A stretch of DNA of 64,000 nt, taken from positions 1,110 through 65,109 of the forward strand of contig JAUWLW010000009.1 of assembly GCA_030613505.1 (NCBI GenBank). The letters run 5' to 3'. This document shows, in pieces, positions 1 to 59,294 of this stretch (its first letter is position 1; every line of letters starts with the position of its first letter). Made by a program: the position numbers and the translations under genes. Origin of the DNA: Candidatus Zixiibacteriota bacterium (GTDB lineage Bacteria; RBG-13-66-14; B26-G2; WVWN01). The notes under the pieces are model-generated. The model searched no databases and was not told where the DNA came from. It saw only the letters and a list, made by a program, of their open reading frames with translations.

Positions 1-3000
1 GCGACCGGCGACGTAGGCGAGCCGGAGTTGCTAATGCGCCGCGTCCACGTCGCCGCGCCGCCCGAGGCCCACGTTTCGGTCGAAGTCGAGAGGGTGTCGT
101 TCGACGTGCGGACGGGCGTCGACTTGTACCCGCGGCCTCGACTGAAGGTCGAGGAGCGCCACGGCGAGCAGACGTTGAGCGAAGAGTTTGCCTACGACGC
201 GGTGGCGTACCGCGAAGGTACGTACCCCGCCAAGTTCGCCGAGCTCGAGGGCGAAGACGTGATGCGCGGCTATCGGTTGATATCGGTCGCGGTTTACCCC
301 TATCAATACCAACCGGCCGCCGGTACGCTGCGGGTAGTCAAAAGCGTAGTCGTACGGGTATCGTTCCGGGGCGGCGTCCGCCGGCCCAACGCCCGATATC
401 CGGCCCGCCCGGCCGAGGACGGCATCTTCACCCGGGTCGTTCCGGCGGTGGTCCTCAACCACGAGGTCGCGTCGCGGTGGCCTTTCGCCGGCGGCATCGC
501 GCCCGCCCGAGACGGCGACGTTTGGCCTACGGACTTCGCCGGCAAGGCGGCGGTGAAGGTAGTAGTGGAGGAGGAGGCGTTGTACCGCCTTAGTTACGCG
601 GAGTTGAAGGCCACCGGCCTCCCGGTGGACACCCTCAACCCCGCCAACTTGCGCTTTTTCGCCGGCCCCGCCAAGCGCCTGCCCCGCGACTTCAACTACG
701 AGCCGCCGGGCTTGACCGAGCTCCCGATTTACGTAGCCGGTCAGGGCGACGGCCGCTTCGACGCGAGCGACTACGTCGAGTTCTACGGCCACGGCTGCGA
801 CTTCTTCGAGCATATCGAGCCCGGTGAAAACGGCGCGCAGAAATTCTCCAAGAATCGGTTCACGAGGTACAACTTCTATTGGCTCGTGGCGGACGCCGTG
901 CCCGGAAAGAGGATGACGGCGGCGGCCGTCGCGCCTACGGGCGGGACTAAACCCGCCTACTTCTGGGACCGATTACGCCTGGAGGAAGATAATCAAGACG
1001 TAGCCGAAACCGAGAACGCAATACTGGAAGAGGACGAGTACTGGTATTGGCGCATATTCAACGCGCCCACCGGGCCGTCGCGGATAAAATCGTTCACCTT
1101 TAAGGACCCGGTCAACGGCGCGGGCGCGCCGAAGACGTATTTACAGATAATGGTCCGCGAGCAAGAGGGCTTGGAGGGCAACGGCCCCCACCACACCATC
1201 GTTTATCTGAATTACCCGGATAAAAACCATATAATTTTCGAAGAAGATAATTACAAAGCGGACGTCGAGACGTACTTCCACCGCCGGTTCCCGAGCAGGC
1301 ACCTCATCGACGGCCAAAATCGCCTTTACTTCGAGGAGGTGGGGGACCGGGCGCCCATCGACTTCATAATGCTCGACCACTTCGAGTTCGAGTACCCGCG
1401 GCACTTCCGCGCATACCAGGACTACCTCCATTTCTCCAATCCGCCCGGTACGAACGGCAAGGTCCTCTTCGAAATCCCCGGCTTTACTACCGATGACCTG
1501 GTCGTCTACGACGTTACGCGGGGCCGGCGGCTGGCGGCTTTCGAAGTTAAGGCCGCGGGTAACGAGTACACGCTTCGGTTCACGGACGACATACCTTCGG
1601 GTCAGCGCTGGTACGTGGCGGCGTCGCCGTCGGCGGCCCGCAAGCCGCGGGACGTTTATCTGGACGCCGGCTCGAAGCTGCGCGACGTGGACGAGAACGT
1701 CGACTTGGTCGTCGTCGTTTACGACGGTTACTACGACAACGTAATGCCGCTGGTTAACCTGCGCCGGGCCGCGGGCCTCAACGTCCTCGTCGCCCGCGTT
1801 ACGGACGTCTACGACGAATACTCGTGGGGGTTGTACGACCCGGGCGCGACGCGGTTATTGGTGAAAGACGTCTACCGTAAGGCGATCTACCGCCCGGGCG
1901 GCGAGCTCCCCGACCACCTCTTCCTGGTGGGCGATGCCTATTTAGACCATCGGGATAACTACGGGAACTTTGCCAACCGCGAGCTTTGGCGCGAGTTCGG
2001 CCGCAACCAGGTCCCCACGTACTACATCAACACGTCGTCCAGCGGCCGTACCTCCTCGGATAACTATTTCGTCGCGATGAGCGCCAGCCTGGCCCCGGAC
2101 CTGGCGGTAGGCCGCTTTCCCGCCCCGTTCGACGATAACATCGACGCCATCGTGGAGAAGGTCGTGGCGTACGAGCGCCACGCGGCCAACGGCCCCTGGA
2201 ATAACCGCGTAATCCTCGTCGCCGACAACGACGACAAGACCGAGTCGGGCGGCGGCCGGGGCGACTTTACCCGGGATAACGAAAACCTGGAGGAGGAGTT
2301 TACCCCCTTGGGTTTCGAGGTCCGCAAGGAATATATCGAATGGCTGACACGCCGTTTCCCCGTCGACAGAATAGAAGAAACGGGTTTCGACTTCATGTCC
2401 CGGGGCGAGCGCCAATATTGGGTCGGTAGGATTATGAAGCCCGATTTCTTGAAGGGCTTCAACGGCATAATCATGCACTACGCCGGCCACGGCGGCCCCC
2501 AAGTTTGGTCCCACGAGAACCTCTTCCTCCACCATAAGGACCTGCCGCCGGTAGACGACGTCGACGCCCTCGAGAACGCCCCGTACTTGCCCGTCATCAT
2601 ACAATGTTCTTGTTCGACCGCCTATTTCGACCAGTGGTACGGGACGGAAAACGAGCCGCTGGATTTCGGGCAATGTATCAGCGAGTACATCTTGCAAGTG
2701 CCGCGTAAGGGCGGGGTCGCGGCGTTGGGCTCGACCCGCCTCGGGTACGAGGGCGCACAACACGCTTTCCTCCAAAGTTTCTACGGCTACGTCTTCCCCA
2801 AGAAGAAGGCGCGGTGGAGCGGCGTAACGGTGGGCGAAGCCCATCTGGTGGGTAAAATAAAAGTCGGCGAAACCATCCGCGACATGTTCGTACTGCTCGG
2901 CGACCCGTCGATGACGCTCGCCACGCCGCGGCCGGGGTTGAAGTTAACCCCCAATAAGGCTAAGGTGAAGCGGGGCGAGAAGGTCAAGGTCGCCGGTACG

Positions 3001-4137
3001 GTGCCCAACAACTTCAACGGCAAGGCCGTGGTGCAGCTTTTCGACCGGCCTTGGTACTTCTACAGCGGCGACATGGACAGGGACATCTACCGGGACCGGT
3101 TGCTCGCTACGACGGATGTCGAGGTCTTGAACGGCCGCTTCGACGCGACGTTGGTCGTGCCGACGATGCCCGTCAATCCTATCCCGAGCTTCGACGCCGG
3201 GCCTCCCGTTGCCGCGGGAGAAGCGGCTCCGGCGGGGGCGGCGTCCGCGGCGGCCGATAACGCGGCCGCGGCCGCGGAGGGGGCCGGACCGCCGGCGCCG
3301 GCCGCGGCGTCGCCGTACCGCGTCCCGTCGCTCGCGCCCGTCGCCGAGGACGGCGTAGTTCACGTTAAAGCCGTGGCTTACGGGACCGGCTTCCGCCGGG
3401 TATACGTCTGCAACGAGGACGTAACGGTCAACGTGGCAGGGGAGGTTAGCTCCGGCGACAACGTCGGCCCGGATATCGACGTCTACTTGAACGATTATTC
3501 CTTCCGCAGCGGCGACCCCACCGACCCGACCCCCACGCTTCTGGTCGACGTGCGCGACGAGAGCGGCGTCCTCGTCGCGCGCAACCTCGAGGCCATAGAT
3601 AAGGATAAGGGCGAGAGAACCTTCGTGCCCTTCTCCGCCCGCATAACTAAACCCGACCCCAAATCGACGCCGACCGTTCTGGACCTCACTTATTATTACA
3701 AGGCCAAGGTGGGCGATTACCGCGGCGGCTCGGTGGAGAAAGAGATTTCGCTGGCAGACGGCGTGAGTACAATCGCCGTGACGGCGTACGACAGCTTGGG
3801 CAATAAGAGCCAGCGGAAGGTCCAATGCGTCGTGAGCGGGGCGTTGGGCATGGCGGAAGTGATGAATTGCCCGAACCCGTTCAAGGACGATACCTACTTC
3901 ACGTTCGTAGCCTCGAGCGACGTCGACAGCCTGGTCATTAAGATCTACACCGCCACCGGGCGCTTGATCCAGAAATTGGAAACCGGCGGCCTGCCGGCGG
4001 GCTACAACCAGATCCACTGGGACGGCCGCGACGGCGACGGCGACCGCATAGCCAACGGCGTTTACTTCTATAAAATCATCGCCCGGGCCGGCGGTGAGAA
4101 GATCGTCGCCCGGCAGAAGATGTTTAAACTGAGGTAG
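1..4137 (+). CDS. Peptidase C25 (gingipain-like) family cysteine protease, 5'-partial. It has an Ala/Pro-rich linker and a C-terminal FlgD-Ig/T9SS-CTD-like sorting domain.
   Basis: The reading frame is open from nt 1, so the gene starts upstream of the window. No signal peptide is visible. C25 catalytic dyad context is present: 'HYAGHGGPQVW' (His) and 'IIQCSCSTAYFD' (Cys). The N-terminus resembles a gingipain propeptide. A low-complexity linker 'AAGEAAPAGAASAAADNAAAAAEGAGPPAPAAASP' is present. The last ~90 aa ('CPNPFKDDTYFTF...ANGVYFYKIIARAGGEKIVARQKMFKLR') match the C-terminal domain shared with the proteases at 8642, 50503 and 52348. Confidence 0.7.
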   Translation, partial: ATGDVGEPELLMRRVHVAAPPEAHVSVEVERVSFDVRTGVDLYPRPRLKVEERHGEQTLSEEFAYDAVAYREGTYPAKFAELEGEDVMRGYRLISVAVYPYQYQPAAGTLRVVKSVVVRVSFRGGVRRPNARYPARPAEDGIFTRVVPAVVLNHEVASRWPFAGGIAPARDGDVWPTDFAGKAAVKVVVEEEALYRLSYAELKATGLPVDTLNPANLRFFAGPAKRLPRDFNYEPPGLTELPIYVAGQGDGRFDASDYVEFYGHGCDFFEHIEPGENGAQKFSKNRFTRYNFYWLVADAVPGKRMTAAAVAPTGGTKPAYFWDRLRLEEDNQDVAETENAILEEDEYWYWRIFNAPTGPSRIKSFTFKDPVNGAGAPKTYLQIMVREQEGLEGNGPHHTIVYLNYPDKNHIIFEEDNYKADVETYFHRRFPSRHLIDGQNRLYFEEVGDRAPIDFIMLDHFEFEYPRHFRAYQDYLHFSNPPGTNGKVLFEIPGFTTDDLVVYDVTRGRRLAAFEVKAAGNEYTLRFTDDIPSGQRWYVAASPSAARKPRDVYLDAGSKLRDVDENVDLVVVVYDGYYDNVMPLVNLRRAAGLNVLVARVTDVYDEYSWGLYDPGATRLLVKDVYRKAIYRPGGELPDHLFLVGDAYLDHRDNYGNFANRELWREFGRNQVPTYYINTSSSGRTSSDNYFVAMSASLAPDLAVGRFPAPFDDNIDAIVEKVVAYERHAANGPWNNRVILVADNDDKTESGGGRGDFTRDNENLEEEFTPLGFEVRKEYIEWLTRRFPVDRIEETGFDFMSRGERQYWVGRIMKPDFLKGFNGIIMHYAGHGGPQVWSHENLFLHHKDLPPVDDVDALENAPYLPVIIQCSCSTAYFDQWYGTENEPLDFGQCISEYILQVPRKGGVAALGSTRLGYEGAQHAFLQSFYGYVFPKKKARWSGVTVGEAHLVGKIKVGETIRDMFVLLGDPSMTLATPRPGLKLTPNKAKVKRGEKVKVAGTVPNNFNGKAVVQLFDRPWYFYSGDMDRDIYRDRLLATTDVEVLNGRFDATLVVPTMPVNPIPSFDAGPPVAAGEAAPAGAASAAADNAAAAAEGAGPPAPAAASPYRVPSLAPVAEDGVVHVKAVAYGTGFRRVYVCNEDVTVNVAGEVSSGDNVGPDIDVYLNDYSFRSGDPTDPTPTLLVDVRDESGVLVARNLEAIDKDKGERTFVPFSARITKPDPKSTPTVLDLTYYYKAKVGDYRGGSVEKEISLADGVSTIAVTAYDSLGNKSQRKVQCVVSGALGMAEVMNCPNPFKDDTYFTFVASSDVDSLVIKIYTATGRLIQKLETGGLPAGYNQIHWDGRDGDGDRIANGVYFYKIIARAGGEKIVARQKMFKLR

Positions 4138-4150
4138 CGTGGTAAACGAT

Positions 4151-5128
4151 ATGAAACCGTTATTTATTGCCGCGGTCCTTCTCGCGATAGCGGCGGCGAG
4201 CGCAAATGCCGACGAAAATAAATACGCCGCCGATTGGATGACGTACGGCGCCGGCGCCCGGGCGCTGGGGATGGGCGGCGCGTTCGTCGCCGTGGCCGAC
4301 GACGCTACGGCCGCCTATTGGAACCCAGCCGGGATGCCCTCGGTGGAGCGGGCCGCCTTCTCCGCCATGCACTCCTACACCTTCAACGGCCTCGCCGCGT
4401 ACGACAGCATTTACGGCGCGTATAACCTCGGCAAGTACGGCGCCGTGGGCGGCGGCCTGTTGATGTGCGCCGTCGACGATATTCCCATTACGGGCTGGAA
4501 CGACCCCGAATCGCCGAACAGGAGGCCCGTGTTGAAAGGGTACGCGGATTCGGGGGATTACGCCGTATACGGCTCGTACGGCCGCGAGTTGTTGCCCAAG
4601 TTTAACGTCGGCGCGAGCGGCATCTTTATAATGGGCCGGCACCTGGAAGACTTCGAAGAAGACGCCAACTCCTCCGGCCAGGCGCTCGACGTCGCGGCCA
4701 AGGCGGGCCCGTTCGGGCCGTTCACCGTCGGCGTGAACGTCCAGAATATATATTCCAATCTGAAATGGGATACCGGTAAGAAAGAGACGATTCCCACCAA
4801 CGTCAAGTTGGGCGGAGCGTACCGGCGCGCGGTCTCGAAGTGGGACAGCGAGTTCACGCTGGCCGCGGACTGCAACGTCAAGTTCGCGGGCTACGACTTC
4901 GCCTCTCAGCTCGCCGCGGGCGACGCGAGCTTCGACTTCTGCGGCGGCGGCGAGTGGTGGTACCGGAGGACGGTAGCGGTGCGATTGGGGAGCGAGCGTT
5001 CCGCCTTGACCGGCGGCGTGGGGCTCGCGGTGAGGGCGCTGGGCGCTTCCTTCGGCATCGACTACGCTTTTCTCTCTGACACCGGGCTCGAGTCCAGCCA
5101 CCGGGCGTCGGCCTCGGCCGCCTTCTAG
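4151..5128 (+). CDS. Outer-membrane beta-barrel protein, PorV/FadL-like (candidate shuttle for CTD cargo).
   Basis: Signal peptide 'MKPLFIAAVLLAIAAASANA'. Signature motif 'GAGARALGMGGAFVAVADDATAAYWNPAGM', which I recall from PorV(LptO)/FadL-like barrels. Alternating amphipathic strands. Ends in a C-terminal Phe (beta-signal). It lies 2 nt downstream of the C25 gene stop. A GTG at 4139 is an alternative start. Confidence 0.5.
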   Translation: MKPLFIAAVLLAIAAASANADENKYAADWMTYGAGARALGMGGAFVAVADDATAAYWNPAGMPSVERAAFSAMHSYTFNGLAAYDSIYGAYNLGKYGAVGGGLLMCAVDDIPITGWNDPESPNRRPVLKGYADSGDYAVYGSYGRELLPKFNVGASGIFIMGRHLEDFEEDANSSGQALDVAAKAGPFGPFTVGVNVQNIYSNLKWDTGKKETIPTNVKLGGAYRRAVSKWDSEFTLAADCNVKFAGYDFASQLAAGDASFDFCGGGEWWYRRTVAVRLGSERSALTGGVGLAVRALGASFGIDYAFLSDTGLESSHRASASAAF

Positions 5129-8092: not shown

Positions 8093-8121
8093 TTGACAAC
8101 GGCGGCGATTTAAGTTATAAT
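8093..8121 (+). promoter_or_regulatory. Consensus sigma70 promoter: TTGACA, 17-nt spacer, TATAAT.
   Basis: TTGACA at 8093-8098, a 17-nt spacer (8099-8115) and TATAAT at 8116-8121. An AGGAGG RBS at 8144-8149 and ATG at 8155 follow. A perfect consensus promoter is conspicuous in a 65% GC genome. Confidence 0.7.
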
Positions 8122-8140
8122 GATATTAATAATCATTATC
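8122..8140 (+). promoter_or_regulatory. Fur-box-like operator.
   Basis: 'GATATTAATAATCATTATC' matches 17 of 19 positions of the Fur consensus GATAATGATAATCATTATC. It lies immediately downstream of the -10 hexamer and contains the near-palindrome TAATAATCATTATCA. Confidence 0.6.
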
Positions 8141-8154
8141 AATAGGAGGTTTCG

Positions 8155-8619
8155 ATGCGGAAAGCGTTTGTTGGGCTAGCGGCTTTACTCGCGACGTGGG
8201 TCGCGGCTGCGTCGGCGGCGATGCTGCCAATTACGACCGCTGAGCTGGCGGACCACGCGACGTTGGTCGTCGCGGGGACGGTGGAAGACGTGACGTCGTA
8301 CGCGCCCGACGCCGCCGGGATAATTTTCTCCGAGGCGAAGGTTAGGGTCGGCGATACGGCGGTAGGGTCGAACGCGGACGAGTACGTTACGGTGCGGTAC
8401 ATGGGCGGCGAATACGGCGGCCTGGCGCTCGTAATTATGGAAGAGGCGACGTTCGAGGTCGGCGAAGAGGTAGTTCTGTTCCTCGCCCCCGTAGACGGCG
8501 GCGCGTACAAGTGCCCGGACGGCGCTCAGGGTAAAATGTCGGTGGTTGACGGAACCGTTCTACCGGCCGGAAAAACGTTAAACCAATTCTTGGCCGAGGT
8601 AGCGGCCGCGGGCCGTTAG
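8155..8619 (+). CDS. Small secreted hypothetical protein (154 aa), first gene behind the Fur-box promoter.
   Basis: Signal peptide 'MRKAFVGLAALLATWVAAASAA'. Strong RBS. I recognise no domain. Confidence 0.55.
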   Translation: MRKAFVGLAALLATWVAAASAAMLPITTAELADHATLVVAGTVEDVTSYAPDAAGIIFSEAKVRVGDTAVGSNADEYVTVRYMGGEYGGLALVIMEEATFEVGEEVVLFLAPVDGGAYKCPDGAQGKMSVVDGTVLPAGKTLNQFLAEVAAAGR

Positions 8620-8641
8620 ACTTGACCGGAAGGGTGCGCAA

Positions 8642-9853
8642 ATGAAGAAGGTATTTTTAATCGCTTTGATTATAGCCATAGCGGCGCCGGCGTTCGGCTT
8701 TAAGGTCTTCTATTACGGCGGCAAGATAGTAAAGCACGGTGAGGAGCAGATCCCCTGGACGATGAGGTTCAACAACCTCGGCACGCCGGACTGCGCGAAA
8801 GAGTTCGCCGCGCTGGCTTCGTCGCTTAATACCTGGTCCAACGTTACCAAGCAGTGGTACCGCAACAAACGCGGCGTTAATACGAGCACTATCAATTACG
8901 GCTACGACGGCGTTAACCTCTGCGTTTGGTATGAGCCCGGATACTCGGGTCAGGGAGGCTGGCCGTGGGCGGCGGGCGCCATCGCCGTGAACATCTTCTG
9001 GATGACGGACGCCGGTACGTTTTATAAGGTAGTCGAAAACGACGTCTGCTTCAACGGCCATAACTTCACCTGGTCCGACAAGGGCGAGGTGTACCGGATG
9101 GATGTCCAGAACATAGCGACCCACGAATTCGGTCACAACCTCGTCCTGGCCGATTTGTACGACGCCGCCTCGCGGGATTTTACGATGTACGGTTACGCGT
9201 CTACCGGCGAGACGAAGAAGCGTACGCTGCATCAGGACGATATAAACGGCATCCGATTCTTATATCCCAACGACGAAATTACGCTGGAGTCGTTCACCGC
9301 GACGGCGCGCGAGGGCCGGGTGCTGGTGGCGTGGAAGGTCTCGCGCGAGGAGAACCACGCCGGCTACAACCTCTACCGCTTGGAGGACGTGGGGGGCGGC
9401 GCCGACTACGTGAAATTGAACGAGGCGCTGATCGTAGGGCGCTCGCCGTACGAGTTTGAAGACGGCGGCGTGAAAGCGGGCACGGCGTACAAGTACCTGC
9501 TGGAGTCCGTGGACCTGAGCGGCGGCAAGGAGCGCTTCGGGCCGGCGCGGGTGGAGGTCCCGACGGCGCAGAAGCGGGTATTCGCGCTGGCGCAGAGCTA
9601 CCCCAACCCGGCGCGGACGGCGGCGACGATAAAGTTCGCGCTGCCGGAGGCGACGACGGCCGAGCTGGAGGTATACGATTTGAGCGGCCGGCGGGTGGCT
9701 ACGCTGTACTCCGGTGCGGCGGAGGCCGGGGAACGCGAGGTGGTGTGGAACCTGGCGGGCGACGACGGCTCCGCGGTGGCGCCCGGGGTGTACATATACC
9801 GGCTGCGGACGCCGGGCGACGTCGCCGCGCGCCGGCTGGTCGTGGCCCGGTAA
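8642..9853 (+). CDS. Secreted metzincin-like zinc metalloprotease with a C-terminal FlgD-Ig/T9SS-CTD-like domain.
   Basis: Signal peptide 'MKKVFLIALIIAIAAPAFG'. Variant metzincin motif 'HEFGHNLVLAD' (HExxHxxxxxD, lacking the canonical Gly) with a downstream Met-turn candidate 'FTMYGY'. The C-terminal ~90 aa ('YPNPARTAATIKFALPEATTAELEVYDLSGRRVATLY...GVYIYRLRT') and the preceding ~100 aa domain are homologous to the C-termini of the M14 paralogs. Confidence 0.65.
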   Translation: MKKVFLIALIIAIAAPAFGFKVFYYGGKIVKHGEEQIPWTMRFNNLGTPDCAKEFAALASSLNTWSNVTKQWYRNKRGVNTSTINYGYDGVNLCVWYEPGYSGQGGWPWAAGAIAVNIFWMTDAGTFYKVVENDVCFNGHNFTWSDKGEVYRMDVQNIATHEFGHNLVLADLYDAASRDFTMYGYASTGETKKRTLHQDDINGIRFLYPNDEITLESFTATAREGRVLVAWKVSREENHAGYNLYRLEDVGGGADYVKLNEALIVGRSPYEFEDGGVKAGTAYKYLLESVDLSGGKERFGPARVEVPTAQKRVFALAQSYPNPARTAATIKFALPEATTAELEVYDLSGRRVATLYSGAAEAGEREVVWNLAGDDGSAVAPGVYIYRLRTPGDVAARRLVVAR

Positions 9854-10032
9854 ACGGTGGCTTGGTGTGTACGCGTCGGCATGGGCGGGCTCCGGCCCGC
9901 CCTTTTTCCGACTTGGGGCGTTAAACGGCTTTTTCGGCGGCACCGTCTAAAGTCGGCGCGGCGTTTGGCATTGCAAACGCGTGGCGGCGGTGTTAAAATT
10001 ATCGTGGAAATTGTAATGTTTTCCGGAAGGAA

Positions 10033-10512: not shown

Positions 10513-11238
10513 ATGAGGACAGTAAACGTCATAAAAAGAGTTACGGCGGCCGCCGTTCTGATATCAGTTATGATGCTGGGCTTGGCTTGCTACGAACGTT
10601 TCATCGTCATTCAGGTGAAGAAGCCGCCCGAAATCGACCCGTCGGTGTACAAGCGGGTCGGCGTGCTGCCGTTCGAGGGCGAGGAGGACGAGGGCCTTTT
10701 GGCCTCGAAGGCGGTGCGCGAGAAGATGGCGGCTGAGGAAAATTTCCTCGTCGAACCCGCCGAGACGGTCGAGGCCGCCCTCGACCGGGTCGATTTCTTC
10801 GATCCGTCGAGTAGGGACCAGGCCGTGGCTTTAGGCGCCGAGTTGGGGGTGGACGCGGTGCTCATCGGCGAAGTCGAATTTATACAGCGGACCTATAGCC
10901 CGGAGGGCGACGTCCGCAACGAGCTCTACACCGCGGATCGCCGGGCGATAGCTCCGTTCGAGCTCGGGACGTCGTACGCCACGCGGTACATGGACGTGAA
11001 TTTAAGGTATACCTTGCGGCTGACCGTCAAAGCGCTCGACGTCAGGACGGGGCGTTTGATGCGCCGGCGGGAATTCGAAGCGACGACGATGAATACCTAT
11101 AAACAACGCGAAGTTACCGAGGCCTCTTTTAAGGAAAAAGAGATCTTCGATGAGCTGCTCGAAGAAGTTGTGGATGACTTCGTATACACGCTCCAACCCC
11201 ACGACGTGGCACAGACGCGTGAAGTTGCGAGGTTTTAA
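10513..11238 (+). CDS. Lipoprotein with a TolB-N/LpoB/CsgG-like alpha/beta domain. Hypothetical.
   Basis: Lipobox 'LGLAC'. 'VGVLPFEGEEDEG...LGAELGVDAVLIGEV' resembles small periplasmic lipoprotein domains that dock on envelope machines. Its 3' end overlaps the start of the next gene by ~20 nt. Confidence 0.4.
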   Translation: MRTVNVIKRVTAAAVLISVMMLGLACYERFIVIQVKKPPEIDPSVYKRVGVLPFEGEEDEGLLASKAVREKMAAEENFLVEPAETVEAALDRVDFFDPSSRDQAVALGAELGVDAVLIGEVEFIQRTYSPEGDVRNELYTADRRAIAPFELGTSYATRYMDVNLRYTLRLTVKALDVRTGRLMRRREFEATTMNTYKQREVTEASFKEKEIFDELLEEVVDDFVYTLQPHDVAQTREVARF

Positions 11239-14200
11239 ATACAAACTGGCATGGGCCTTGGCTCTCGGGGTCGTTTTTACCGCCGCGCGCGCGGCGGCTT
11301 TCGGTAAGTCCGTCGTCCGCAACGAGAAGTTGTCCTGGCGGATCCTGCCCACCGAACATTTCGACATCTATTACTACGAGGAGGAAGATTTTCTCCTCGA
11401 TTGGGGGGCCGAGATTGCCGAGGACGCCTACATCAAGATGTCGGACGAGCTGGGGTACGATTTGAATAAGCGTATCCCGATAATAATTTTCATGTCGGCG
11501 CGCCATTTCGAACAAAACAACATAAGTCCGGTATCGGGGGAGGGCGTGGGCGGTTTTTCGGAACCGCTTAAGAGCCGCCTCGTGATGCCGTACAACGGCT
11601 CCCAGCGCCAGTTCGAGGATACCATGGTCCACGAAATGGTGCATATCTTCCAATTTAACATGCTGTTCCCGACCATGGGCGCGGTATTTACGGCCGCGGC
11701 GCCGCCGGACTGGTTTATGGAGGGGATGGCTACCTACTACGGTAACGATATCGATCCGGAAGGCGAGATGGTCTTGCGCGACGCCGTCATGAGCGAGAGC
11801 GTCCCCGACCTCGAGCGACTGAACGATTTCCGGTATTTACCCAGCCCGTACCTCGGTTATAAGCTAGGCCAGTCGGTAATGGTGTATTTAGTCGAGACGT
11901 ACGGCGACGACGCACCGGCCGAGCTACTGCGGGCGTTCGGCGGCACGACGTTGAGGAGGCCCGATACCGCTCTGGACGACGCGTTCGGCATCAAGCTCGC
12001 CGACCTCAGCGAGGATTGGAAGGTTTGGCTCCGGCGACGCTATTGGCCTCTTATAGGCGAAAAGGACCAGCTCAAGGATTTCGCGACCGAGCTGACGCCC
12101 AAAGATGACAGGCGCGATTATATTACGTATTTCAAGCCGAAGTGGTCGCCCTCGGGCGATTTGGTGGCGTGCCTAACGGTCAAGGAGCGCTTCCTGGACA
12201 TCTTCCTCGTGAACGCCGAGACCGGCGAGAGGTTCGAGAATCTCACCAAGGGTTATTCGCTGTCGAAGTACGAGTACATAATGTATTTGCAGAACGGCCT
12301 CAGCTGGTCCCCGGACGGCAACTTTATCGCTTTCGTCGGCAAAAAGGGAACCTACGACCAGATATTCATATTGAACGTTTTCAACCGCAAGATCGCTCGG
12401 CGCTATAACCCCGAGTTCGAGGATGTCCTCTCGCCGGCGTACTCGCCCGACGGGACCAAGATCGCTTTCGCCGGCATCAAACGCGCGAAGAGGGATATCT
12501 ACGTTCTGGACGTGGCGTCGGGCGCGATTACGCCCGTTACCGACGACTTCTACTCCGACGGCTATCCCAATTGGTCGCCGGACGGCGAGTACATTTACTA
12601 CGCCTCCGAACGGCAGACGTTCCACAACATATTCCGCGTACGGCCCGACGGCACGGGCCGGGAGCAGATCACCTTCGGCGATCACGAGAACGTTTCGCCC
12701 GCGGTATCCCCCGACGGCTCGCGGTTGATGTTCGTATCGGACCGCGCGGACGGCATCTTCAATATTTTCGCGATGGATTTGGAGACACGGGACTTAGGCC
12801 GGTATACCGACGTCGTGACCGGCGTTATGGACGCGGCCTGGTCCCCCGACGGCGAGACCATAGCGTTTACGTCTTTCGAGAACATGACGTATTCCATCTG
12901 GGCCATGCCGTGGCGGAACGAGCCGGTGGCGGAGGTCGCGCTCGAGCGTCCGGAGCCGGGCGACTACGGGTACGCGGAGTGGCTGGCGCGGCGCGGCGAC
13001 CGGGGCGAGGGCGGGGATGAAGTCGAACTGTCGGTCGGCGGTGAACCCGCGGGCGTTGCCGTGGCCTTCGCCGGCGAGGAGGAATCGGGGGCGGGCGCCG
13101 GCGGCGAGGAGAGCGAGGCCGGCGAGGAGGAGGAGCTCGAGCCGCCGACGGTCCGGGACCTCGTCGTTTCCGATATCGTGGCCGACTCGCGGAAGTACGG
13201 CATCAAGTTCAGCCCCGATTACCTCTACACGACGTTTTCCTATACCTCGGGCGGCATTTTGGCCAACTATACCGTATTCGGTTTGAGCGACATCCTCGGC
13301 AGCCACCGCATCGACATCCTCTTCGATTTGACAACCATCGGCTCTTTTAACGATTTAAGCCTCGCGTTGGATTACTATTACATGACGAGGCGCACGTCGT
13401 ACGTCTTCTCGGCGATAACCTGGCGGGATTGGTATGTAGCTAACGAGATCGGCTTCGACGAGCGCCTTTCGGGCGGGTCGGCGGTCGCCTATTATCCGTT
13501 GAACATGAGGAACCGGGTGGGCGTCGGCCTTTACGGTCACCACCGCCGGCGGATATACTATGACTACGAGCTGGAAAAGGAGATACCGTCCCGGGACGAC
13601 AATATGTTGGGCGCGTTGGCCAGTTTCACCCGCGATACGTCGCAGTGGGGGTACTATCACCCCACCGCGGGCACCCGTTTGGCCTATACCGTCCGCCAGA
13701 CGGTGCCGGCCACGTCGCAATCGTTGTATTATACCGAACAGATCCTCGACGCCCGGCGGTATATTAGGATATCCCGGCGGATTAGCCTGGCTTTCCGGGC
13801 CGCGGCCGGCCTCGGCTCCGGCCGCGCCCCCGAGAACTTCTTCATAGGCGGCGGCTCGACGCTGCGCGGCTACCGTTACGACGAGATCTACGGCACGCGT
13901 TTCGGCCTGGGCAGTTGCGAGTTCCGGTTCCCGATCGTCGATTACGTCGTGTGGCCCATAGAGGGTTTCGCCATCGGCGGTTTCCGCGGCCTTTTCTTCG
14001 TAGACCTCGGCTCCGCGTGGGCGGACTACGACAACGAGTCCATCTACCCCGACGACCGCCAGTGGCACACCGACGACGAGGACCTCGAATACGACCGCTT
14101 CACGTTCGCCACGTCCGAAGGCGGGTGGCACCTGGTCCACGGCAAGATGGCGTTCGGGACCGGTTTCAGGTGGTGGCTGGGGTACTTCGACCTGAAGTTC

Positions 14201-14278
14201 GATTGGGGTTGGCGCACTAACCTCCGCGACGTGGAGAAGCCGCCGCGCTTCCACTTCACGCTGGGCGCCGATTTCTAA
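11219..14278 (+). CDS. Multidomain outer-membrane protein: N-terminal gluzincin-like peptidase, TolB-like PD40 beta-propeller, acidic linker, and C-terminal Omp85-family beta-barrel.
   Basis: Start chosen at GTG 11219, giving the signal peptide 'VKLRGFKYKLAWALALGVVFTAARAAAFG'. The ORF is open from 11150. 'HEMVHIFQ' plus downstream 'FMEGMATYY' form an HExxH...E gluzincin motif. Repeated 'WSPDG/YSPDG/VSPDG' PD40 blades are present. Acidic linker 'GEEESGAGAGGEESEAGEEEELEPP'. The C-terminal ~340 aa carry Omp85 hallmarks 'GGGSTLRGYRYDEIYGTRFGLGSCEFRFPI', 'GGFRGLFFVDLGSAW' and a terminal '...FHFTLGADF' beta-signal. Confidence 0.7.
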   Translation: MKLRGFKYKLAWALALGVVFTAARAAAFGKSVVRNEKLSWRILPTEHFDIYYYEEEDFLLDWGAEIAEDAYIKMSDELGYDLNKRIPIIIFMSARHFEQNNISPVSGEGVGGFSEPLKSRLVMPYNGSQRQFEDTMVHEMVHIFQFNMLFPTMGAVFTAAAPPDWFMEGMATYYGNDIDPEGEMVLRDAVMSESVPDLERLNDFRYLPSPYLGYKLGQSVMVYLVETYGDDAPAELLRAFGGTTLRRPDTALDDAFGIKLADLSEDWKVWLRRRYWPLIGEKDQLKDFATELTPKDDRRDYITYFKPKWSPSGDLVACLTVKERFLDIFLVNAETGERFENLTKGYSLSKYEYIMYLQNGLSWSPDGNFIAFVGKKGTYDQIFILNVFNRKIARRYNPEFEDVLSPAYSPDGTKIAFAGIKRAKRDIYVLDVASGAITPVTDDFYSDGYPNWSPDGEYIYYASERQTFHNIFRVRPDGTGREQITFGDHENVSPAVSPDGSRLMFVSDRADGIFNIFAMDLETRDLGRYTDVVTGVMDAAWSPDGETIAFTSFENMTYSIWAMPWRNEPVAEVALERPEPGDYGYAEWLARRGDRGEGGDEVELSVGGEPAGVAVAFAGEEESGAGAGGEESEAGEEEELEPPTVRDLVVSDIVADSRKYGIKFSPDYLYTTFSYTSGGILANYTVFGLSDILGSHRIDILFDLTTIGSFNDLSLALDYYYMTRRTSYVFSAITWRDWYVANEIGFDERLSGGSAVAYYPLNMRNRVGVGLYGHHRRRIYYDYELEKEIPSRDDNMLGALASFTRDTSQWGYYHPTAGTRLAYTVRQTVPATSQSLYYTEQILDARRYIRISRRISLAFRAAAGLGSGRAPENFFIGGGSTLRGYRYDEIYGTRFGLGSCEFRFPIVDYVVWPIEGFAIGGFRGLFFVDLGSAWADYDNESIYPDDRQWHTDDEDLEYDRFTFATSEGGWHLVHGKMAFGTGFRWWLGYFDLKFDWGWRTNLRDVEKPPRFHFTLGADF

Positions 14279-50502: not shown

Positions 50503-52254
50503 TTAACGAGTGATTACCAATCGCCGGTTTAGCGTTCCGTTGGCCGTTCGGAGGCGGTAGACGTAAACGCCGGGCGCCAGCGGCCGGCCCGCCTCGTCGG
50601 CTACGTTCCAGGCGATCTCTTTGGCGCCGGCGGCGGCGTGGCCTTCGTAGAGGGTCCGTATTTTGCGGCCGGCGTAGTCGTAGACCTCGAGCGCGACGGC
50701 CCCGGGTTGGGCCAGCTCGAACTTGATGGTCGTGGCGTCTCGGGCCGGGTTAGGCCGGTTCTGATAAAGGGCCGCGCCTTTCGGCAGCGCCTTGCCCGAC
50801 GCCCGCCCCTTGACCGGGCCGAAGGTCGACGTTTCCCCCTTCAAGTCCACGCCCTCGAGCAGGTACTCGTAATCGCGGCCCGCTTCGACGCCCCGGTCGA
50901 CGTAGTTATATGGCGAGCGGCCGGCGACGAGGTTCTCGTTGAGCTTCGCGTAATCGACCGTCGCCGGTCCTTCCGCGGTCGGCCGGCGGTAGAGGTTGAA
51001 GCCCGCCACGTCGCGTTCGTTCGCGACTTCCCAATGAAGCGTTACGCCGCCGGCGGCGGCCTCGGCCCGGAACGACGTTACGTTTACGGGTAACTCCGAA
51101 AAGCCGAGCTTAAGGAGTTTGAGAAGCACCGGATATTGTTCGGCGCAGGTGATGGGGATTTGGTAGGCCGGCGGTTGTTGGGAGGTATCGATCTCGAACG
51201 TGAAGCCCCAGCACTTGTCGTGGCCTTTACCGTCGTATTCCCAATCGCACGCCGTCCCGCTCCCCAGGTAGCGCAACGTTTCCCAGAAATTGCCGTGCCG
51301 CCACCCCGATAAAGTTTCTATGAGATATAACGAGACGTTTTTGAAGTACGTATAATCGGGCTCGGGGGGATGGCCGTAATCGTGGTTCCAGGGATACATG
51401 CAATATCGGCCGGACGAGTGATAATTTAGGGCGTAATTAAACTGGTGTTCGTTGCTATTGACGAGGTCGCGGATAGCTTGGGTTTCCGGTTCCGAAAAGG
51501 CGTAGGGGCCGCAATAGGTAGAGGCGTTCGGGTTGTGACTGCACCCCGGTACTTTACCCCACTCGTAGTCGTAATTACGGTTGAGGTCGACGCCGTAGCT
51601 CCCGCCGCCGTTGTCTCGGCGGTTTTTTCGCCACCTGTTGTAAACCTTGAAGACGTGGTTGTGGCCGTCAGGGTTAAGCATGGGGATTATCCAGGTCTCG
51701 ACGTTATCGACTATCAGCTTGACGTCGGGATCGGTCGGGTATTTCTCGCATAATTTCTTGGCGAGGTAAAGCGGCACCTCGACCGTCATGATCTCGTTGG
51801 CGTGGTGGTTGCCGTCTATGAGGATATCCTTTTCGGCTGCCTCGTGCGTCGCGACGTTGTCTGATATCTTCAGCGCCCAGATTTCGCGTTTCTCCCACGT
51901 ATCGCCGACGTCGTAGAGCCTGCAGATATTCGGGTAGGTGCTGGCGAGCCCTTGTAATATGGAAACCATCTCGTCGTACTCGGTATACTCGGAGGGCGGC
52001 GCGTCGGCGGTATCGATTTCGTCCAGAACGTCGTAGGAGATACTTTTAAGGCCAAGGACGGCGAGGTCGTCGGCCGACGCGTATAGGTCAAAGTGACCGG
52101 CGGCGTCCGCCCCGGCGACGTCGAAATCGTAGCGTCGCAGGTCGGCCATAAGGCGAGCCGGGTCGGCGTACGCGCGCGTTAAGTAAACGGTATCCGCGGC
52201 GGCTCCCGCGGCCAACGCAGCGACCACGGTTACAAATAATACTACGCTTTTCAC
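50503..52254 (-). CDS. Secreted M14 zinc carboxypeptidase with a C-terminal FlgD-Ig/T9SS-CTD-like domain (paralog 1).
   Basis: Signal peptide. 'GNHHANEIMT' HxxE zinc site. 'MLNPDGHNHV'. The C-terminal '...YQNRPNPARDATTIKFELAQPGAVALEVYDYAGRKIRTLY...GVYVYRLRTANG' domain is present. Confidence 0.8.
   Translation of the reverse strand: MKSVVLFVTVVAALAAGAAADTVYLTRAYADPARLMADLRRYDFDVAGADAAGHFDLYASADDLAVLGLKSISYDVLDEIDTADAPPSEYTEYDEMVSILQGLASTYPNICRLYDVGDTWEKREIWALKISDNVATHEAAEKDILIDGNHHANEIMTVEVPLYLAKKLCEKYPTDPDVKLIVDNVETWIIPMLNPDGHNHVFKVYNRWRKNRRDNGGGSYGVDLNRNYDYEWGKVPGCSHNPNASTYCGPYAFSEPETQAIRDLVNSNEHQFNYALNYHSSGRYCMYPWNHDYGHPPEPDYTYFKNVSLYLIETLSGWRHGNFWETLRYLGSGTACDWEYDGKGHDKCWGFTFEIDTSQQPPAYQIPITCAEQYPVLLKLLKLGFSELPVNVTSFRAEAAAGGVTLHWEVANERDVAGFNLYRRPTAEGPATVDYAKLNENLVAGRSPYNYVDRGVEAGRDYEYLLEGVDLKGETSTFGPVKGRASGKALPKGAALYQNRPNPARDATTIKFELAQPGAVALEVYDYAGRKIRTLYEGHAAAGAKEIAWNVADEAGRPLAPGVYVYRLRTANGTLNRRLVITR
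50556..51204. repeat. ~650-bp segment ~97% identical to 52401..53049 (3' third of the tandem M14 genes).
   Basis: Direct comparison of the two stretches shows only scattered single-nucleotide differences at a constant offset of 1845 nt. Additional short identical blocks occur near 51780-51900 and 53620-53740. Confidence 0.8.
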
Positions 52255-52280
52255 GCCGTCACCTCCTCGGGGTAACCGTT

Positions 52281-52317
52281 AAAAAAGCCCGGTTCGGCGC
52301 GAGCGCCGCCGGGCTTT
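52281..52317 (-). terminator. Rho-independent terminator of M14 paralog 2.
   Basis: On the minus strand: GCCCGGCGGCGCTCGCGCCGAACCGGGC followed by TTTTTT. Confidence 0.65.
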
Positions 52318-52347
52318 CGTCATTATTATCTGTTAGGTCGTCTCAAG

Positions 52348-54096
52348 TTAACGGGTTACGACCAAGCGCCGACTGAGCGTTTCGGCGCTCGTCCGCAGCC
52401 GGTAGACGTAAACGCCGGGCGCCAGCGGCCGGCCCGCCTCGTCGGCTACGTTCCAGGCGACCTCTGTGGCGCCGGCGTCGGCGTGGCCTTCAAAAAGCGG
52501 CCGTATTTTGCGGCCGGCGTAGTCGTAGACCTCGAGCGCGACGGCCCCGGGTTGGGCCAGCTCGAACTTGATGGTCGTGGCGTCTCGAGCCGGGTTAGGC
52601 CGGTTCTGATAAAGGGCCGCGCCTTTCGGCAGCGCCTTGCCCGACGCCCGTCCCTTGACCGGGCCGAAGGTCGACGTGCCCCCCTTCAAGTCCACGCCCT
52701 CGAGCAGGTATTCGTAGTCGCGGCCCGCCTCGGCGCCGCGGTCGACGTAGTTATACGGCGAGCGGCCGGCGATGAGGTTTTTGTTGAGCTTCGCGTAATC
52801 GACCGGCGCCGGCCCTTCCGCGGTCGGCCGGCGGTAGAGGTTGAAGCCCGCCACGTCGCGTTCGTTGGCGACTTCCCAGTGAAGCGCTACGCCGCCGGCG
52901 GCGGCCTCGGCCCGGAACGACGTTACGTTTACGGGTAACTCCGAAAAGCCGAGCTTAAGGAGTTTGAGGAGCACCGGATATTGTTCGGCGCAGGTGATGG
53001 GGATTTGGTAGGCCGGCGGTTGTTGGGAGGTATCGATCTCGAACGTGAAACCCCAATCTTTGGGGTGGCCTTTACCGTCGTATTCCCAGTCTACGGCGTT
53101 GCCGGAGGCCAAGTAGCGAAGGATTTCCCAGTCGTTGCCGTGCCGCCAGCCTGGCAAGGTCTCGAGCAGGTACGTCGCGACGTTCTTGTAATACGTGTAA
53201 TGGGGCTCCGGCGGGTGGCCGTAGGTATAAGCCCACGGGTAGAGCATGGCCCGGCCGGAGGAGTGGTAGTTTAACGTATACGCGAATTGGTGGTTAACGT
53301 CGTTGATGAGGTCCCGGATCGCCTGGTTCTCCGGTTCGGAAAAAGGGGAGGGGCCGCAGTAAGTCCTATCATTGGGGTTATGGCTCGCGCCGGATTCGCC
53401 CCAGTGATAGTCGTAGTTGCGGTTGAGGTCGACGCCGTAGATGCCGCCGCCGTTGTCGCGGCGGTTCTTACGCCACCTGTTATCCTCCGTGAAAACCCAG
53501 TTGTGGCCGTCCGGGTTGAGCATGGGGATTATCCATGTCTCGACGTTATCGACTATCAGCTTCACGCCGGGGTCGGTCGCGTATTTCTCGCACAAGTTCT
53601 TGGCGAGGTAAAGCGGCACCTCGACCGTCATGATCTCGTTGGCGTGGTGGCAACCGTTTATAAGGATGTCTTTCTCCGCCGTCTCGTGCGTCGCGACGTT
53701 GTCTGATATCTTCAGCGCCCAGATTTCACGCTTCTCCCAGGTGTCGCCGACGTCGTAAAGTTTACAAATATTGGGGTAGGTATTCGCGAACCCTTGCAAT
53801 ATCGGTACCATCTCATGGTACTCAGTGTACTCCGGAGGAGGTGCGTCGGAGGTATCGATTTCGTCCAGAACGTCGTAGGAGATACCTTTAAGGCCAAGGA
53901 CGGCGAGGTCGTCGGCCGACGCGTATAGGTCGAAGTGGTCGCCGGGTACGGCGCCGTCTACGTCGAAGTCGTACTCCGCCAGATCGGTCATAAGGCGGGA
54001 CGGGTCCGCGTAGGCGCGCGTCCAATAAAGCGTGTCCGCGGACGCGCCGGCGGCCAGGGCGGTTCCTAAGATTGTGACAACTACTATAGCTCTCAT
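52348..54096 (-). CDS. Secreted M14 zinc carboxypeptidase with a C-terminal FlgD-Ig/T9SS-CTD-like domain (paralog 2).
   Basis: Same motifs as paralog 1 ('NGCHHANEIMT', 'MLNPDGHNWV'). ~75% aa identity over the catalytic domain. Near-identical C-terminal third. Confidence 0.8.
   Translation of the reverse strand: MRAIVVVTILGTALAAGASADTLYWTRAYADPSRLMTDLAEYDFDVDGAVPGDHFDLYASADDLAVLGLKGISYDVLDEIDTSDAPPPEYTEYHEMVPILQGFANTYPNICKLYDVGDTWEKREIWALKISDNVATHETAEKDILINGCHHANEIMTVEVPLYLAKNLCEKYATDPGVKLIVDNVETWIIPMLNPDGHNWVFTEDNRWRKNRRDNGGGIYGVDLNRNYDYHWGESGASHNPNDRTYCGPSPFSEPENQAIRDLINDVNHQFAYTLNYHSSGRAMLYPWAYTYGHPPEPHYTYYKNVATYLLETLPGWRHGNDWEILRYLASGNAVDWEYDGKGHPKDWGFTFEIDTSQQPPAYQIPITCAEQYPVLLKLLKLGFSELPVNVTSFRAEAAAGGVALHWEVANERDVAGFNLYRRPTAEGPAPVDYAKLNKNLIAGRSPYNYVDRGAEAGRDYEYLLEGVDLKGGTSTFGPVKGRASGKALPKGAALYQNRPNPARDATTIKFELAQPGAVALEVYDYAGRKIRPLFEGHADAGATEVAWNVADEAGRPLAPGVYVYRLRTSAETLSRRLVVTR
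52401..53049. repeat. Second copy of the ~650-bp near-identical segment (see 50556..51204).
   Basis: As above. Confidence 0.8.
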
Positions 54097-57142: not shown

Positions 57143-57775
57143 CTAAACCCCCAGGCACATAACGCCGCCCGCGATATAAATCGCCTTCGAATCTTCGCCG
57201 ATACCCAAGGCCGTGATGCCGGGGCCGATTACGAGCCACATCACGAGGCCGGCAACCCACAATCCCGTCCTCGCGTGGCCCGGCTCGATCATCGTCCCCT
57301 TGGGGATATAACCTCTCCCCGGTACGTAAACCAATTCCAGTTCGGCGGTTCGGGCCCCGGCGGCGGAGAAGCCGTACCCGCAATCGCCGCAGAACCTCGC
57401 CCCCTTCTCGTTGACGAAACCGCACGTAGGGCACACCCTTGCGTACGTTAAGCCTGCGTCGGACGCACCCGTTCCTTTATTCGTTCCGCATTGCGAACAG
57501 TATTTCGCGTCGGCCGGGTTTACGTAGCGGCAGTTAACGCACGTCCAAGTCTCTCCGGCCGCGGCGACGTCGGATATCCCCGCCAATATCTCGTCGTACG
57601 TAATTTGCGCGTACGTCAGCGGATCGTATTCGATTATGGGGAGTTCTTCGGTGACTGTCGCCCCGCGCTCTTCGCTGAGACGGTTCCACGGTACGGCCCA
57701 CGCGATATTAGCCCACAAAAGCGCTGACGCAAGGATAAGAACGAACGCGCCGTTAACCTTTAAAATGCGACCCAT
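57143..57775 (-). CDS. Exported/membrane-anchored double-zinc-ribbon protein, paralogous in architecture to 56067..56867.
   Basis: Hydrophobic N-terminus 'VNGAFVLILASALLWANIAWA'. 'CVNCRYVNPADAKYCSQCG' and 'CPTCGFVNEKGARFCGDCG'. C-terminal TM 'GLWVAGLVMWLVIGPGITALGIG'. Confidence 0.5.
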   Translation of the reverse strand: MGRILKVNGAFVLILASALLWANIAWAVPWNRLSEERGATVTEELPIIEYDPLTYAQITYDEILAGISDVAAAGETWTCVNCRYVNPADAKYCSQCGTNKGTGASDAGLTYARVCPTCGFVNEKGARFCGDCGYGFSAAGARTAELELVYVPGRGYIPKGTMIEPGHARTGLWVAGLVMWLVIGPGITALGIGEDSKAIYIAGGVMCLGV

Positions 57776-58036
57776 CCAAGTAGCCTCCTCTCTAAATAAA
57801 CTAATTTCGTAATTATTTCAAAATACCTAACACTCTTCCGAATGTCAAGAACTTTCCTATATATGATACGTTTTGTTAAGATTGAGGGGGGTGTTAAGCG
57901 GTATTCTCGGTTTAATGGCTGTAGCGTTTCGAAAACTTCGCGTCGAAGACCTCCGGCCGATGTGGCTTCCGTAATATTCCATAAAAGAACGGGCGGCCTC
58001 GCGGCCGCCCGAAAGAACGATTGCGCGTACGGGGTG

Positions 58037-59023: not shown

Positions 59024-59294
59024 GCTTTCCTCCTTCTCGTTTGAGGTTAGCTTTCTTACGGACATATTATGAAATCGATTGCTTAAAAGCAAGTTTTTTT
59101 TAGGTTAAAATCCGCGGCGGCGTGCGGCCCGCCGAAAAGCCTTGACATGGAAGCTATACGTTATTAGAATTTAAGGCGCTGGCTGGCGTGCGCGGCTGTT
59201 AATAATTAGCGAGTTTCGGTTGTTTCAAGCGAACGCAAACGGTAAAAAACGACCGTCCTACGACGGGTTTTTTTTTCGCGGGTAGTATCCGAAC

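Follow-up and report, generated by a model that had tools for sequence, protein, structure and literature searches.

A small exported protein of predicted TIMP-like fold is encoded with a matrixin-type protease behind a putative Fur-type operator in a Coatesbacteria-like bacterium

TIMPs are regarded as an invention of animals, and the bacterial enzymes that resemble matrix metalloproteinases (MMPs) as oddities. In the bacterial inhibitor Inh/AprI the N-terminal amino group binds the catalytic zinc, and the expression of Pseudomonas aprA is iron-responsive. Here, we analyze a two-gene operon on contig JAUWLW010000009.1 (assembly GCA_030613505.1, positions 1,110 to 65,109; this whole stretch of 64,000 nucleotides is referred to as the window), in which the gene for a small exported protein of predicted TIMP-like fold (gene 1) precedes that for a secreted matrixin-type protease (gene 2). 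The only bacterial TIMP-like precedent found in open-access full texts is the Mtz-Tim pair of Listeria monocytogenes (Boichis et al., 2021; PMC8235301); the authors of that study came across no previous account of TIMP-like proteins in bacteria. The potempin/KLIKK system of Tannerella forsythia (PMC9890683) includes karilysin, an MMP-like M10 enzyme described as the sole characterised member of the MMP family outside mammals, and PotA, an inhibitor with an oligonucleotide/oligosaccharide-binding (OB) fold that protects the producer.

Like both of these systems, the operon places a secreted peptidase and a small exported protein under joint transcription. We consider it highly probable that its central elements hold together, namely the operon, its promoter and a TIMP-like fold that is linked to M10 peptidases. 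A Fur-family operator and an inhibitory or prodomain-like role of gene 1 are put forward with less confidence, and are weighed below against other explanations.

The TIMP-like protein and its matrixin partner

The region comprises one promoter, two genes separated by 22 nucleotides (nt) and one terminator, and is thus a two-gene operon (Table 1). Both open reading frames (ORFs) are as described in the original prediction, which had been made from the letters of the window and had reported an operon of a 154-amino acid (aa) signal-peptide protein and an HExxH protease. Gene 1 carries a predicted signal peptide (residues 1–21, nt 8155–8217), so that the mature protein is expected to start at A22-M23 (nt 8218) with the residues A-M-L-P; it contains neither a sorting domain nor a lipobox, and its single Cys residue, Cys120, is clade-specific.

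Structural modeling of the 154-aa protein, which had been proposed as a check, was carried out with AlphaFold. With close relatives only as input the predicted local distance difference test score (pLDDT) was 53; after the addition of distant representatives (64 diverse sequences) it reached 95.1, with a predicted template modeling score (pTM) of 0.84. A Foldseek comparison of this model with the PDB placed the NtA domain of agrin, TIMP-2, TIMP-1 and N-TIMP-3 on top. Top fold matches also included the NTR modules PCOLCE and C345C, and a fold search of BFVD returned nothing significant. The model therefore assigns to gene 1 a predicted NTR/TIMP-type OB fold; its predicted N-terminus and the first strand are as far apart as in the TIMPs, to within one residue.

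Gene 1 belongs to a very large family whose members are consistently found next to, or fused with, matrixins of bacteria. Its closest relatives form a tight clade of approximately 63 hypothetical proteins, but a profile search against 1.84 billion representatives, counted as clusters of 50% identity, matched 9118 clusters at E ≤ 1e-3, of which 1321 reached E ≤ 1e-10. The best 149 representatives consist of 122 stand-alone signal-peptide proteins of 135–230 aa and 27 longer proteins. Ten of the latter were tested, and in eight the chain opens with the gene-1 domain and continues with Peptidase_M10; the motif HExxHxxxxx[HD] is present in 20 of the 27, and one fused member, P0203 (450 aa), contains in the same order the counterparts of gene 1, gene 2 and the sorting domain. 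The stand-alone members show the same association, as each of the four distant ones examined on long contigs (identity 25–34%) has an M10 gene immediately downstream in the same orientation, and the pair of gene 1 and gene 2 is syntenic in every locus long enough to show both. The AxA signal peptidase site is conserved in the 149 representatives and is directly followed by a hydrophobic mature N-terminus, of which the +2 position is Met in 52% and Met, Val or Leu in 84%, a preference that is not required by signal peptidase. Invariant in the family are a GG (residues 84–85) and a QGK motif (residues 125–127). No Pfam (E ≤ 0.1), NCBIfam or PHROGs model covers the gene-1 domain, searches of PDB sequences and phage genomes gave no match, and no further NTR-like ORF is present within the window.

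Two other assignments for gene 1 were considered and rejected. The sequence YKCPDG around Cys120 resembles the cysteine switch PRCGxPD, but this Cys is clade-specific and a Val takes its place in the wider family. Some orthologues contain L-A-A-C in their signal peptide, as would suit a lipoprotein, but the window protein has a Trp at the Cys position and the conserved site is AxA. In a distant genome, GCA_973788605.1 (L025, 1260–6418), a TIMP-like gene lies between a reprolysin/ADAM-type metzincin gene and an M10 gene, so that metzincins of more than one type might be served by the family.

Judged from its sequence, gene 2 encodes a secreted matrixin-type metzincin without a prodomain, and a predicted type A cargo of the type IX secretion system (T9SS). 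The Peptidase_M10 model PF00413 scores 30.0 bits (cut-off 24) at residues 143–208, and phmmer aligns the protein to the catalytic domains of MMP-8, MMP-13, MMP-9 and MMP-3 via HEFGHNLVLAD, the Met-turn and QDDINGI. The zinc motif has a Val where HExxHxxGxxH/D has a Gly, and HExxHxxxxxD is found in all 94 homologues with a catalytic domain. A cysteine-switch prodomain (PRCGxPD) was not identified, as gene 2 lacks a PRCG motif, and the alignment of its residue 24 with the start of the M10 domain in the fused P0203 leaves no prodomain. At the C-terminus, TIGR04183 scores 43 bits (cut-off 23, residues 320–401), FlgD_ig 33.1 (cut-off 27) and PF18962 26.8 (cut-off 27). The same FlgD_ig/Por_Secre_tail region terminates the C25 peptidase and two M14 peptidases of the window, in agreement with the shared C-terminal domain that had been noted previously, and the β-sandwich domain of gene 2 recurs within this lineage in peptidases of the M14 and S8 types. 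Of the T9SS machinery, the window contains a PorV-like gene only (4139–5128, 28 bits against a cut-off of 27), and none of PorU, PorK-N and SprA falls within it.

Other peptidases of the window share these features. Immediately upstream of the PorV-like gene, with 1 nt between them, lies the gene for a C25 (gingipain-like) peptidase that has this sorting region at its C-terminus (28–5128, + strand). In both of two tandem M14 carboxypeptidases (50503–54096, − strand) the C-terminal region has the same two domains, including a T9SS sorting domain, and the two proteins are among the partial matches of the gene-2 protease.

Promoter, operator-like dyad and genomic setting

The hexamers TTGACA and TATAAT at a spacing of 17 nt (8093–8121) are the sole exact 12/12 promoter match in the window, and matches with at most one mismatch number 2 against 0.08 expected. 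Directly downstream, the 19-mer GATATTAATAATCATTATC agrees at 17 of 19 positions with the classical 19-bp Fur-box consensus GATAATGATAATCATTATC, which was used as the reference, and is unique in the window. Both elements had been reported in the original prediction and were found as described; the [G + C] content of the window is 62%, and not 65% as had been stated.

For a comparison of upstream regions, 20 related loci were gathered. In 13 distinct orthologous promoters (gene-1 identity 57–96%) TTGAC, the 17-nt spacing, TATAAT and the Shine-Dalgarno (SD) sequence are essentially invariant, while the spacer sequence and the upstream flank diverge freely. As hexamers and spacing stay constant between diverging flanks, this represents the phylogenetic footprint of a working promoter. 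The region 8108–8144 holds the most AT-rich 30-mer of the window (27 of 30), and in the mRNA leader (8128–8175, + strand) the SD region is predicted to pair with codons 5–8 of gene 1 in a modest hairpin (dG −10.9 kcal/mol, z −2.7). A riboswitch or other leader RNA was rejected, as an Rfam search of the leader gave no element; past the box, the leader differs in sequence between loci. Elsewhere in the window, the second-best promoter (11/12; 59142–59295, + strand) is followed by a leader of approximately 125 nt, in which a hairpin resembling a terminator occurs together with a T9 run (approximately 59246–59278), and then by a PnrA/Bmp-type ABC substrate-binding gene; this leader has no Rfam match and could be an unknown attenuator or riboswitch.

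The Fur-box-like 19-mer begins on the base after the −10 hexamer and ends 3 nt ahead of the SD sequence. It is the only site with three or fewer mismatches to the Fur box in the window, against none in 100 shuffles, and in the 281 kb of DNA scanned boxes with four or fewer mismatches are confined to this promoter. The 7-1-7 core of the overlapping dyad, TAATAATCATTATCA (TAATAAT-C-ATTATCA, 8127–8141), has one mismatch to TGATAATNATTATCA. An AT-rich element is present between the −10 hexamer and the SD sequence in all 13 orthologous promoters, and its consensus GATAATAATAATCATTATC matches the Fur box at 18 of 19 positions; of 17 promoters, orthologous or paralogous, 13 retain the Fur-box-like dyad. 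Three loci contain perfect palindromes: L008 has TTGATAATCATTATCAA, a perfect 7-1-7 Fur site, L009 has GTAATGATAATCATTAC and L020 has TGGTAATTATTACCA, the latter again a perfect 7-1-7 palindrome, in the same register to the SD sequence as in L008 and with a symmetric change in both half-sites, a pattern expected for an operator that is read by a dimer. Other very AT-rich intergenic spots of the window do not match the box. Sites resembling the 7-1-7 pattern at 11478, 61920 and 59197 were considered as further members of a regulon and rejected, being located inside genes or weak and badly placed. On these sequence patterns, we consider a Fur-family operator at this promoter likely.

Some genomes have two pairs of TIMP-like and M10 genes (CP070633.1, L023 9515–13083; L010 and L011 of the metagenome-assembled genome DATKXQ01). 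In these a Fur-like box is present at one pair only (at about 2.037 Mb in CP070633.1), and the other pair has its own promoter and an unrelated leader. In the lineage with a 908-kb contig (L017, 4457–6408), an extra gene of approximately 1.9 kb with a sorting-domain-like C-terminus lies between the TIMP-like and M10 genes, and the leader is GC-rich in place of the Fur-like box. Within the window itself, TTGACA-17-TATTTT followed by GAAATAATTACGAAA is found upstream (57790–57850, − strand) of a gene for a double zinc-ribbon protein (57143–57775). One half of GAAATAATTACGAAA equals TCGTAAT, the Bacillus Zur half-site; the similarity is weak and may be due to chance.

Table 1. Positions of the features of the operon in the window, as identified from the sequence.
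Feature	Position (nt)	Strand	Remarks
−35 hexamer TTGACA	8093–8098	+	Part of the 12/12 promoter match; TTGAC invariant in 13 orthologous promoters
−10 hexamer TATAAT, 17-nt spacer	8116–8121	+	Kept in 16 of 17 promoters despite diverging spacer sequences
Fur-box-like 19-mer GATATTAATAATCATTATC	8122–8140	+	17/19 to consensus GATAATGATAATCATTATC
Dyad TTAATAAT-C-ATTATCAA	8126–8142		8-1-8 with one asymmetry; presumably bound by a Fur-family repressor as a dimer
Shine-Dalgarno sequence AGGAGG of gene 1	8144–8149	+	Read from the sequence; conserved in all loci
Gene 1, 154-aa ORF	8155–8619	+	ATG after AGGAGG
Gene 2, 403-aa ORF	8642–9853	+	HEFGH at residue 161
Gene-2 domain: Sec signal peptide		+	Residues 1–19
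Gene-2 domain: catalytic	8699–9277	+	Residues ~20–212
Gene-2 domain: β-sandwich		+	Residues ~214–316
Gene-2 domain: T9SS C-terminal domain	9599–9850	+	Residues 320–403
Zinc-binding motif HEFGHNLVLAD	9122–9154	+	Residues 161–171, Asp as third ligand; from alignment to MMPs
Met-turn segment FTMYGY	9179–9196	+	Residues 180–185; aligned to ALMYP of MMP-8
Strong intrinsic terminator	9883–9907 (stem 9883–9902)	+	8 G-C pairs, then TTTTT; ends the operon

The host of the operon is a Coatesbacteria-like uncultured bacterium. Its relatives are labeled “bacterium,” Candidatus Zixiibacteriota or Candidatus Coatesbacteria, and one relative is located on the complete Coatesbacteria chromosome CP070633.1 (2.35 Mb). 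The exact proteins of the operon are also encoded on metagenome contigs, for instance ENA ERZ25748748 NODE_47 at 66.5 kb. The gene organization of the surrounding block (C25 peptidase, PorV-like, TatA, PanK, hypothetical, HGD-D-like, the operon, two hypotheticals and a peptidase-propeller-Omp85 protein) is kept in all related loci. The last of these, a protein of 1042 aa (11150–14278, + strand), combines Peptidase_MA_2, a PD40/tricorn-type β-propeller and a C-terminal Omp85 barrel; it is found downstream of the operon in all syntenic loci, and the fusion of a peptidase to an Omp85 barrel is unusual. The rest of the window contains housekeeping genes, together with several peptidases that share the C-terminal sorting region, and no genes of the Fur family or for iron or metal uptake were seen within its 64 kb.

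Proposed mechanism and alternative explanations

We propose that a dimeric metalloregulator of the Fur family holds the near-ideal sigma70-type promoter in check through the dyad operator, which would span the edge of the −10 hexamer, the short leader and the point where transcription starts. Scarcity of the corepressor metal (iron, most likely) would lead to strong transcription of the operon, and both products would be exported by Sec. As gene 2 ends in a T9SS type A sorting domain, the endopeptidase is predicted to cross the outer membrane via the type IX system, while gene 1, having a signal peptide and neither a sorting domain nor a lipobox, is expected to remain in the periplasm. There it may bind the protease 1:1, with its conserved mature N-terminus blocking the active-site cleft; by analogy with the TIMPs and AprI, the α-amino group of residue 1 would be placed on the zinc and Met-2 in the S1′ pocket, where TIMPs have Cys1-Thr2. 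Gene 1 would thereby act as a prodomain in trans that confers latency, and possibly as a folding factor, until the protease is exported, and its translation ahead of gene 2 from the shared mRNA could have the inhibitor ready when the protease folds. In the fused relatives the same domain would play the role of a prodomain in cis. The identity of the repressor and of the metal, the inhibitory function with its mechanism, and the compartment in which the two proteins meet are parts of this scheme that we infer. Gene 1 is probably a TIMP-like inhibitor or a trans-acting prodomain; for the whole chain, from a metal-repressed operon to a TIMP-like inhibitor or trans-prodomain acting with a matrixin, we lean only narrowly in favor.

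Several observations weigh against this scheme. On the side of regulation, the box is degenerate in L005, L006, L007, L014, and L016 and absent in L011, L017, L018 and the second tandem copy of CP070633.1; in the latter four a GC-rich sequence replaces the box and the promoter is retained. Insertions of 5–6 nt occur between the −10 hexamer and the box, which is anchored to the SD sequence and in this respect also compatible with a role in a leader RNA. Neither the window nor any of 27 loci gave a tblastn match to Fur, Zur or PerR, and the half-site TGGTAAT of L010, L019, and L020 lies between those of Fur and Zur. On the side of gene 1, Pfam and PDB-sequence searches show no link to TIMP or NTR at the level of sequence, and hhalign against the N-domains of TIMPs gave E-values of 0.02–0.17 with a probability below 3%. 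The protein lacks the N-terminal Cys and the disulfides, and 83 of the 122 stand-alone members contain no Cys at all. NTR modules are, moreover, not always inhibitors, as PCPE enhances and NtA binds laminin. Finally, the Listeria Tim is a substrate of its protease (PMC8235301).

The absence of any repressor would make the AT-rich stretch a signal for strong expression, either as an easily melted initial region or as an A/U-rich leader that enhances translation, with the likeness to a Fur box as a by-product. Such a role would suit a box that is anchored to the SD sequence and separated from the −10 hexamer by insertions, as well as the leaders of L005, L007, and L016, which stay AT-rich yet lose the dyad, and short palindromes arise easily in pure A/T sequence. 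It is nevertheless improbable in our view. No Fur-box match is expected from the shuffles, other very AT-rich intergenic spots in the window lack the box, the perfect palindromes of L008, L009, and L020 contain symmetric G/C positions, and Rfam identifies no element; three lineages with a GC-rich leader keep the promoter and SD sequence, so that AT-richness is unnecessary for expression. A real operator could also be read by another member of the Fur family (Zur, PerR or a Mur/Nur-like protein) or by an unrelated repressor of AT-rich dyads, in response to zinc, peroxide or another signal. The 7-1-7 boxes of Fur, PerR and Zur in Bacillus subtilis differ at only 1–2 positions per half-site. By inspection, the window site TAATAAT-C-ATTATCA is one mismatch from Fur and two from PerR, and a single step separates TGGTAAT, the half-site of L020, from Fur as well as from Zur; in addition, the regulated enzyme is itself a zinc enzyme and the window contains no linked iron genes. 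We nonetheless regard this possibility as unlikely, if less so than that of no repressor at all, since the 13-site consensus with its 18/19 match and the perfect site of L008 point to Fur itself, and the induction of a zinc-dependent protease under zinc starvation is physiologically implausible. Iron is the best single guess for the effector, a tentative prediction that we place somewhat below even chances. Of the iron-starvation-induced secretion of a protease that had originally been predicted, the conserved promoter with its operator-like dyad and the secreted T9SS metzincin stand, while the assignment to iron does not follow from the site, which fits Fur, Zur and PerR alike; for a haemophore or iron-scavenging module no supporting evidence was found.

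Doubt also attaches to the function of gene 1, for which a chaperone, an inhibitor or a substrate-binding partner had been suggested. A TIMP-fold protein might be a substrate, an effector or an adaptor, be it cleaved and released like Tim, acting in enhancement or targeting like the NTR module of PCPE or the NtA domain of agrin, or serving as a chaperone only. Many NTR modules are non-inhibitory, and NtA, PCOLCE and C345C are among the top fold matches of gene 1, which misses Cys1 and the disulfides of the TIMPs. The Listeria metzincin cleaves Tim, and it is the released TIMP-like fragment that causes the phenotype (PMC8235301). Against such roles, the domain is in fusions always located at the extreme N-terminus, in the place of a metzincin prodomain, its partner protease is devoid of any prodomain, the mature N-terminus is conserved with a Met at +2, and the inhibitor-first gene order is that of the potempins (PMC9890683). 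We therefore judge a non-inhibitory role unlikely, at about one chance in four. The TIMP/NTR fold together with the genetic lock to matrixins favors an inhibitor or prodomain-like partner over a substrate-binding partner, and of the earlier suggestions it is thus the inhibitor that is retained.

Implications and comparison with described systems

What is new at this locus is a TIMP-fold family of about nine thousand clusters of 50% identity for which Pfam, NCBIfam and PHROGs hold no model, its consistent coupling or fusion to matrixins, and its placement under a putative Fur-type operator. If gene 1 inhibits its partner, the family would show in general how bacterial metzincins without a prodomain are kept latent, would amount to a large natural collection of small MMP-binding scaffolds free of disulfides, and would allow a concrete test of whether the MMP-TIMP pair predates animals. 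Through the conserved putative Fur-type operator, secreted proteolysis in this uncultured, protein-degrading lineage may be tied to metal status, a connection that can be tested. More speculatively, animal TIMPs and NTR modules may have in the gene-1 family their bacterial counterpart, and perhaps even their ancestor, so that the pair of a matrixin and a TIMP-fold protein with an inhibitory N-terminus would be ancient and widespread in bacteria, either as a two-gene module or as a single chain with the TIMP-like domain as prodomain. We consider this doubtful; if true, the MMP-TIMP system would be older than animals, and bacteria would in general rely on TIMP-type inhibition to hold metzincins without a prodomain latent, here under a metal-sensing Fur-type switch.

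With classical Fur-repressed promoters, the locus shares a 19-bp box with a 7-1-7 dyad that overlaps the −10/+1 region of a strong sigma70 promoter, but the cargo includes no recognisable function in iron acquisition, and some orthologues lack the box. Serralysin and aeruginolysin with Inh/AprI resemble the present pair in that the gene for an M10 metzincin is accompanied by that for a small periplasmic protein, an inhibitor in those systems and a predicted one in ours; these enzymes differ in being exported by type I secretion, and in an iron control that runs via PvdS and not via a Fur box at the promoter. Compared with the animal TIMPs (MEROPS I35) and NTR modules, gene 1 has no detectable sequence similarity and lacks Cys1, the disulfides and the C-terminal domain, and its family starts with [LVAI]-Met where TIMPs start with Cys-Thr/Ser-Cys. 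Its likeness to the TIMPs may reflect either homology or convergence.

The potempin/KLIKK system of Tannerella forsythia has in common with the operon a small ORF that lies directly upstream of, and is co-transcribed with, a T9SS peptidase (PMC9890683). Potempins are, however, lipoproteins of the outer membrane with a lipobox Cys; gene 1 has a Trp at the position of the Cys of some orthologues and an AxA cleavage site, and shows no structural similarity to PotA, PotC or PotD. The Listeria Mtz-Tim pair differs in its order, as mtz precedes tim while the TIMP-like gene comes first here, and in the form of its TIMP-like protein: Tim (AEO06250.1) is a lipoprotein of which the first ~50 residues are cut by Mtz, whereas in gene 1 a signal peptidase I site directly precedes the domain. 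Its setting is phage-associated and Gram-positive, and its control is by a phage CI/Cro switch in place of a Fur-like operator; in contrast, gene 1 had no matches in PHROGs, phage DNA or BFVD. The route of secretion differs as well, the protease of the present locus being a predicted T9SS cargo. In both systems, a secreted metzincin is encoded adjacent to, and co-transcribed with, an exported protein of predicted TIMP-like fold, the control is by a dedicated repressor (a predicted one of the Fur type in the operon described here), and the pair is conserved as a unit.

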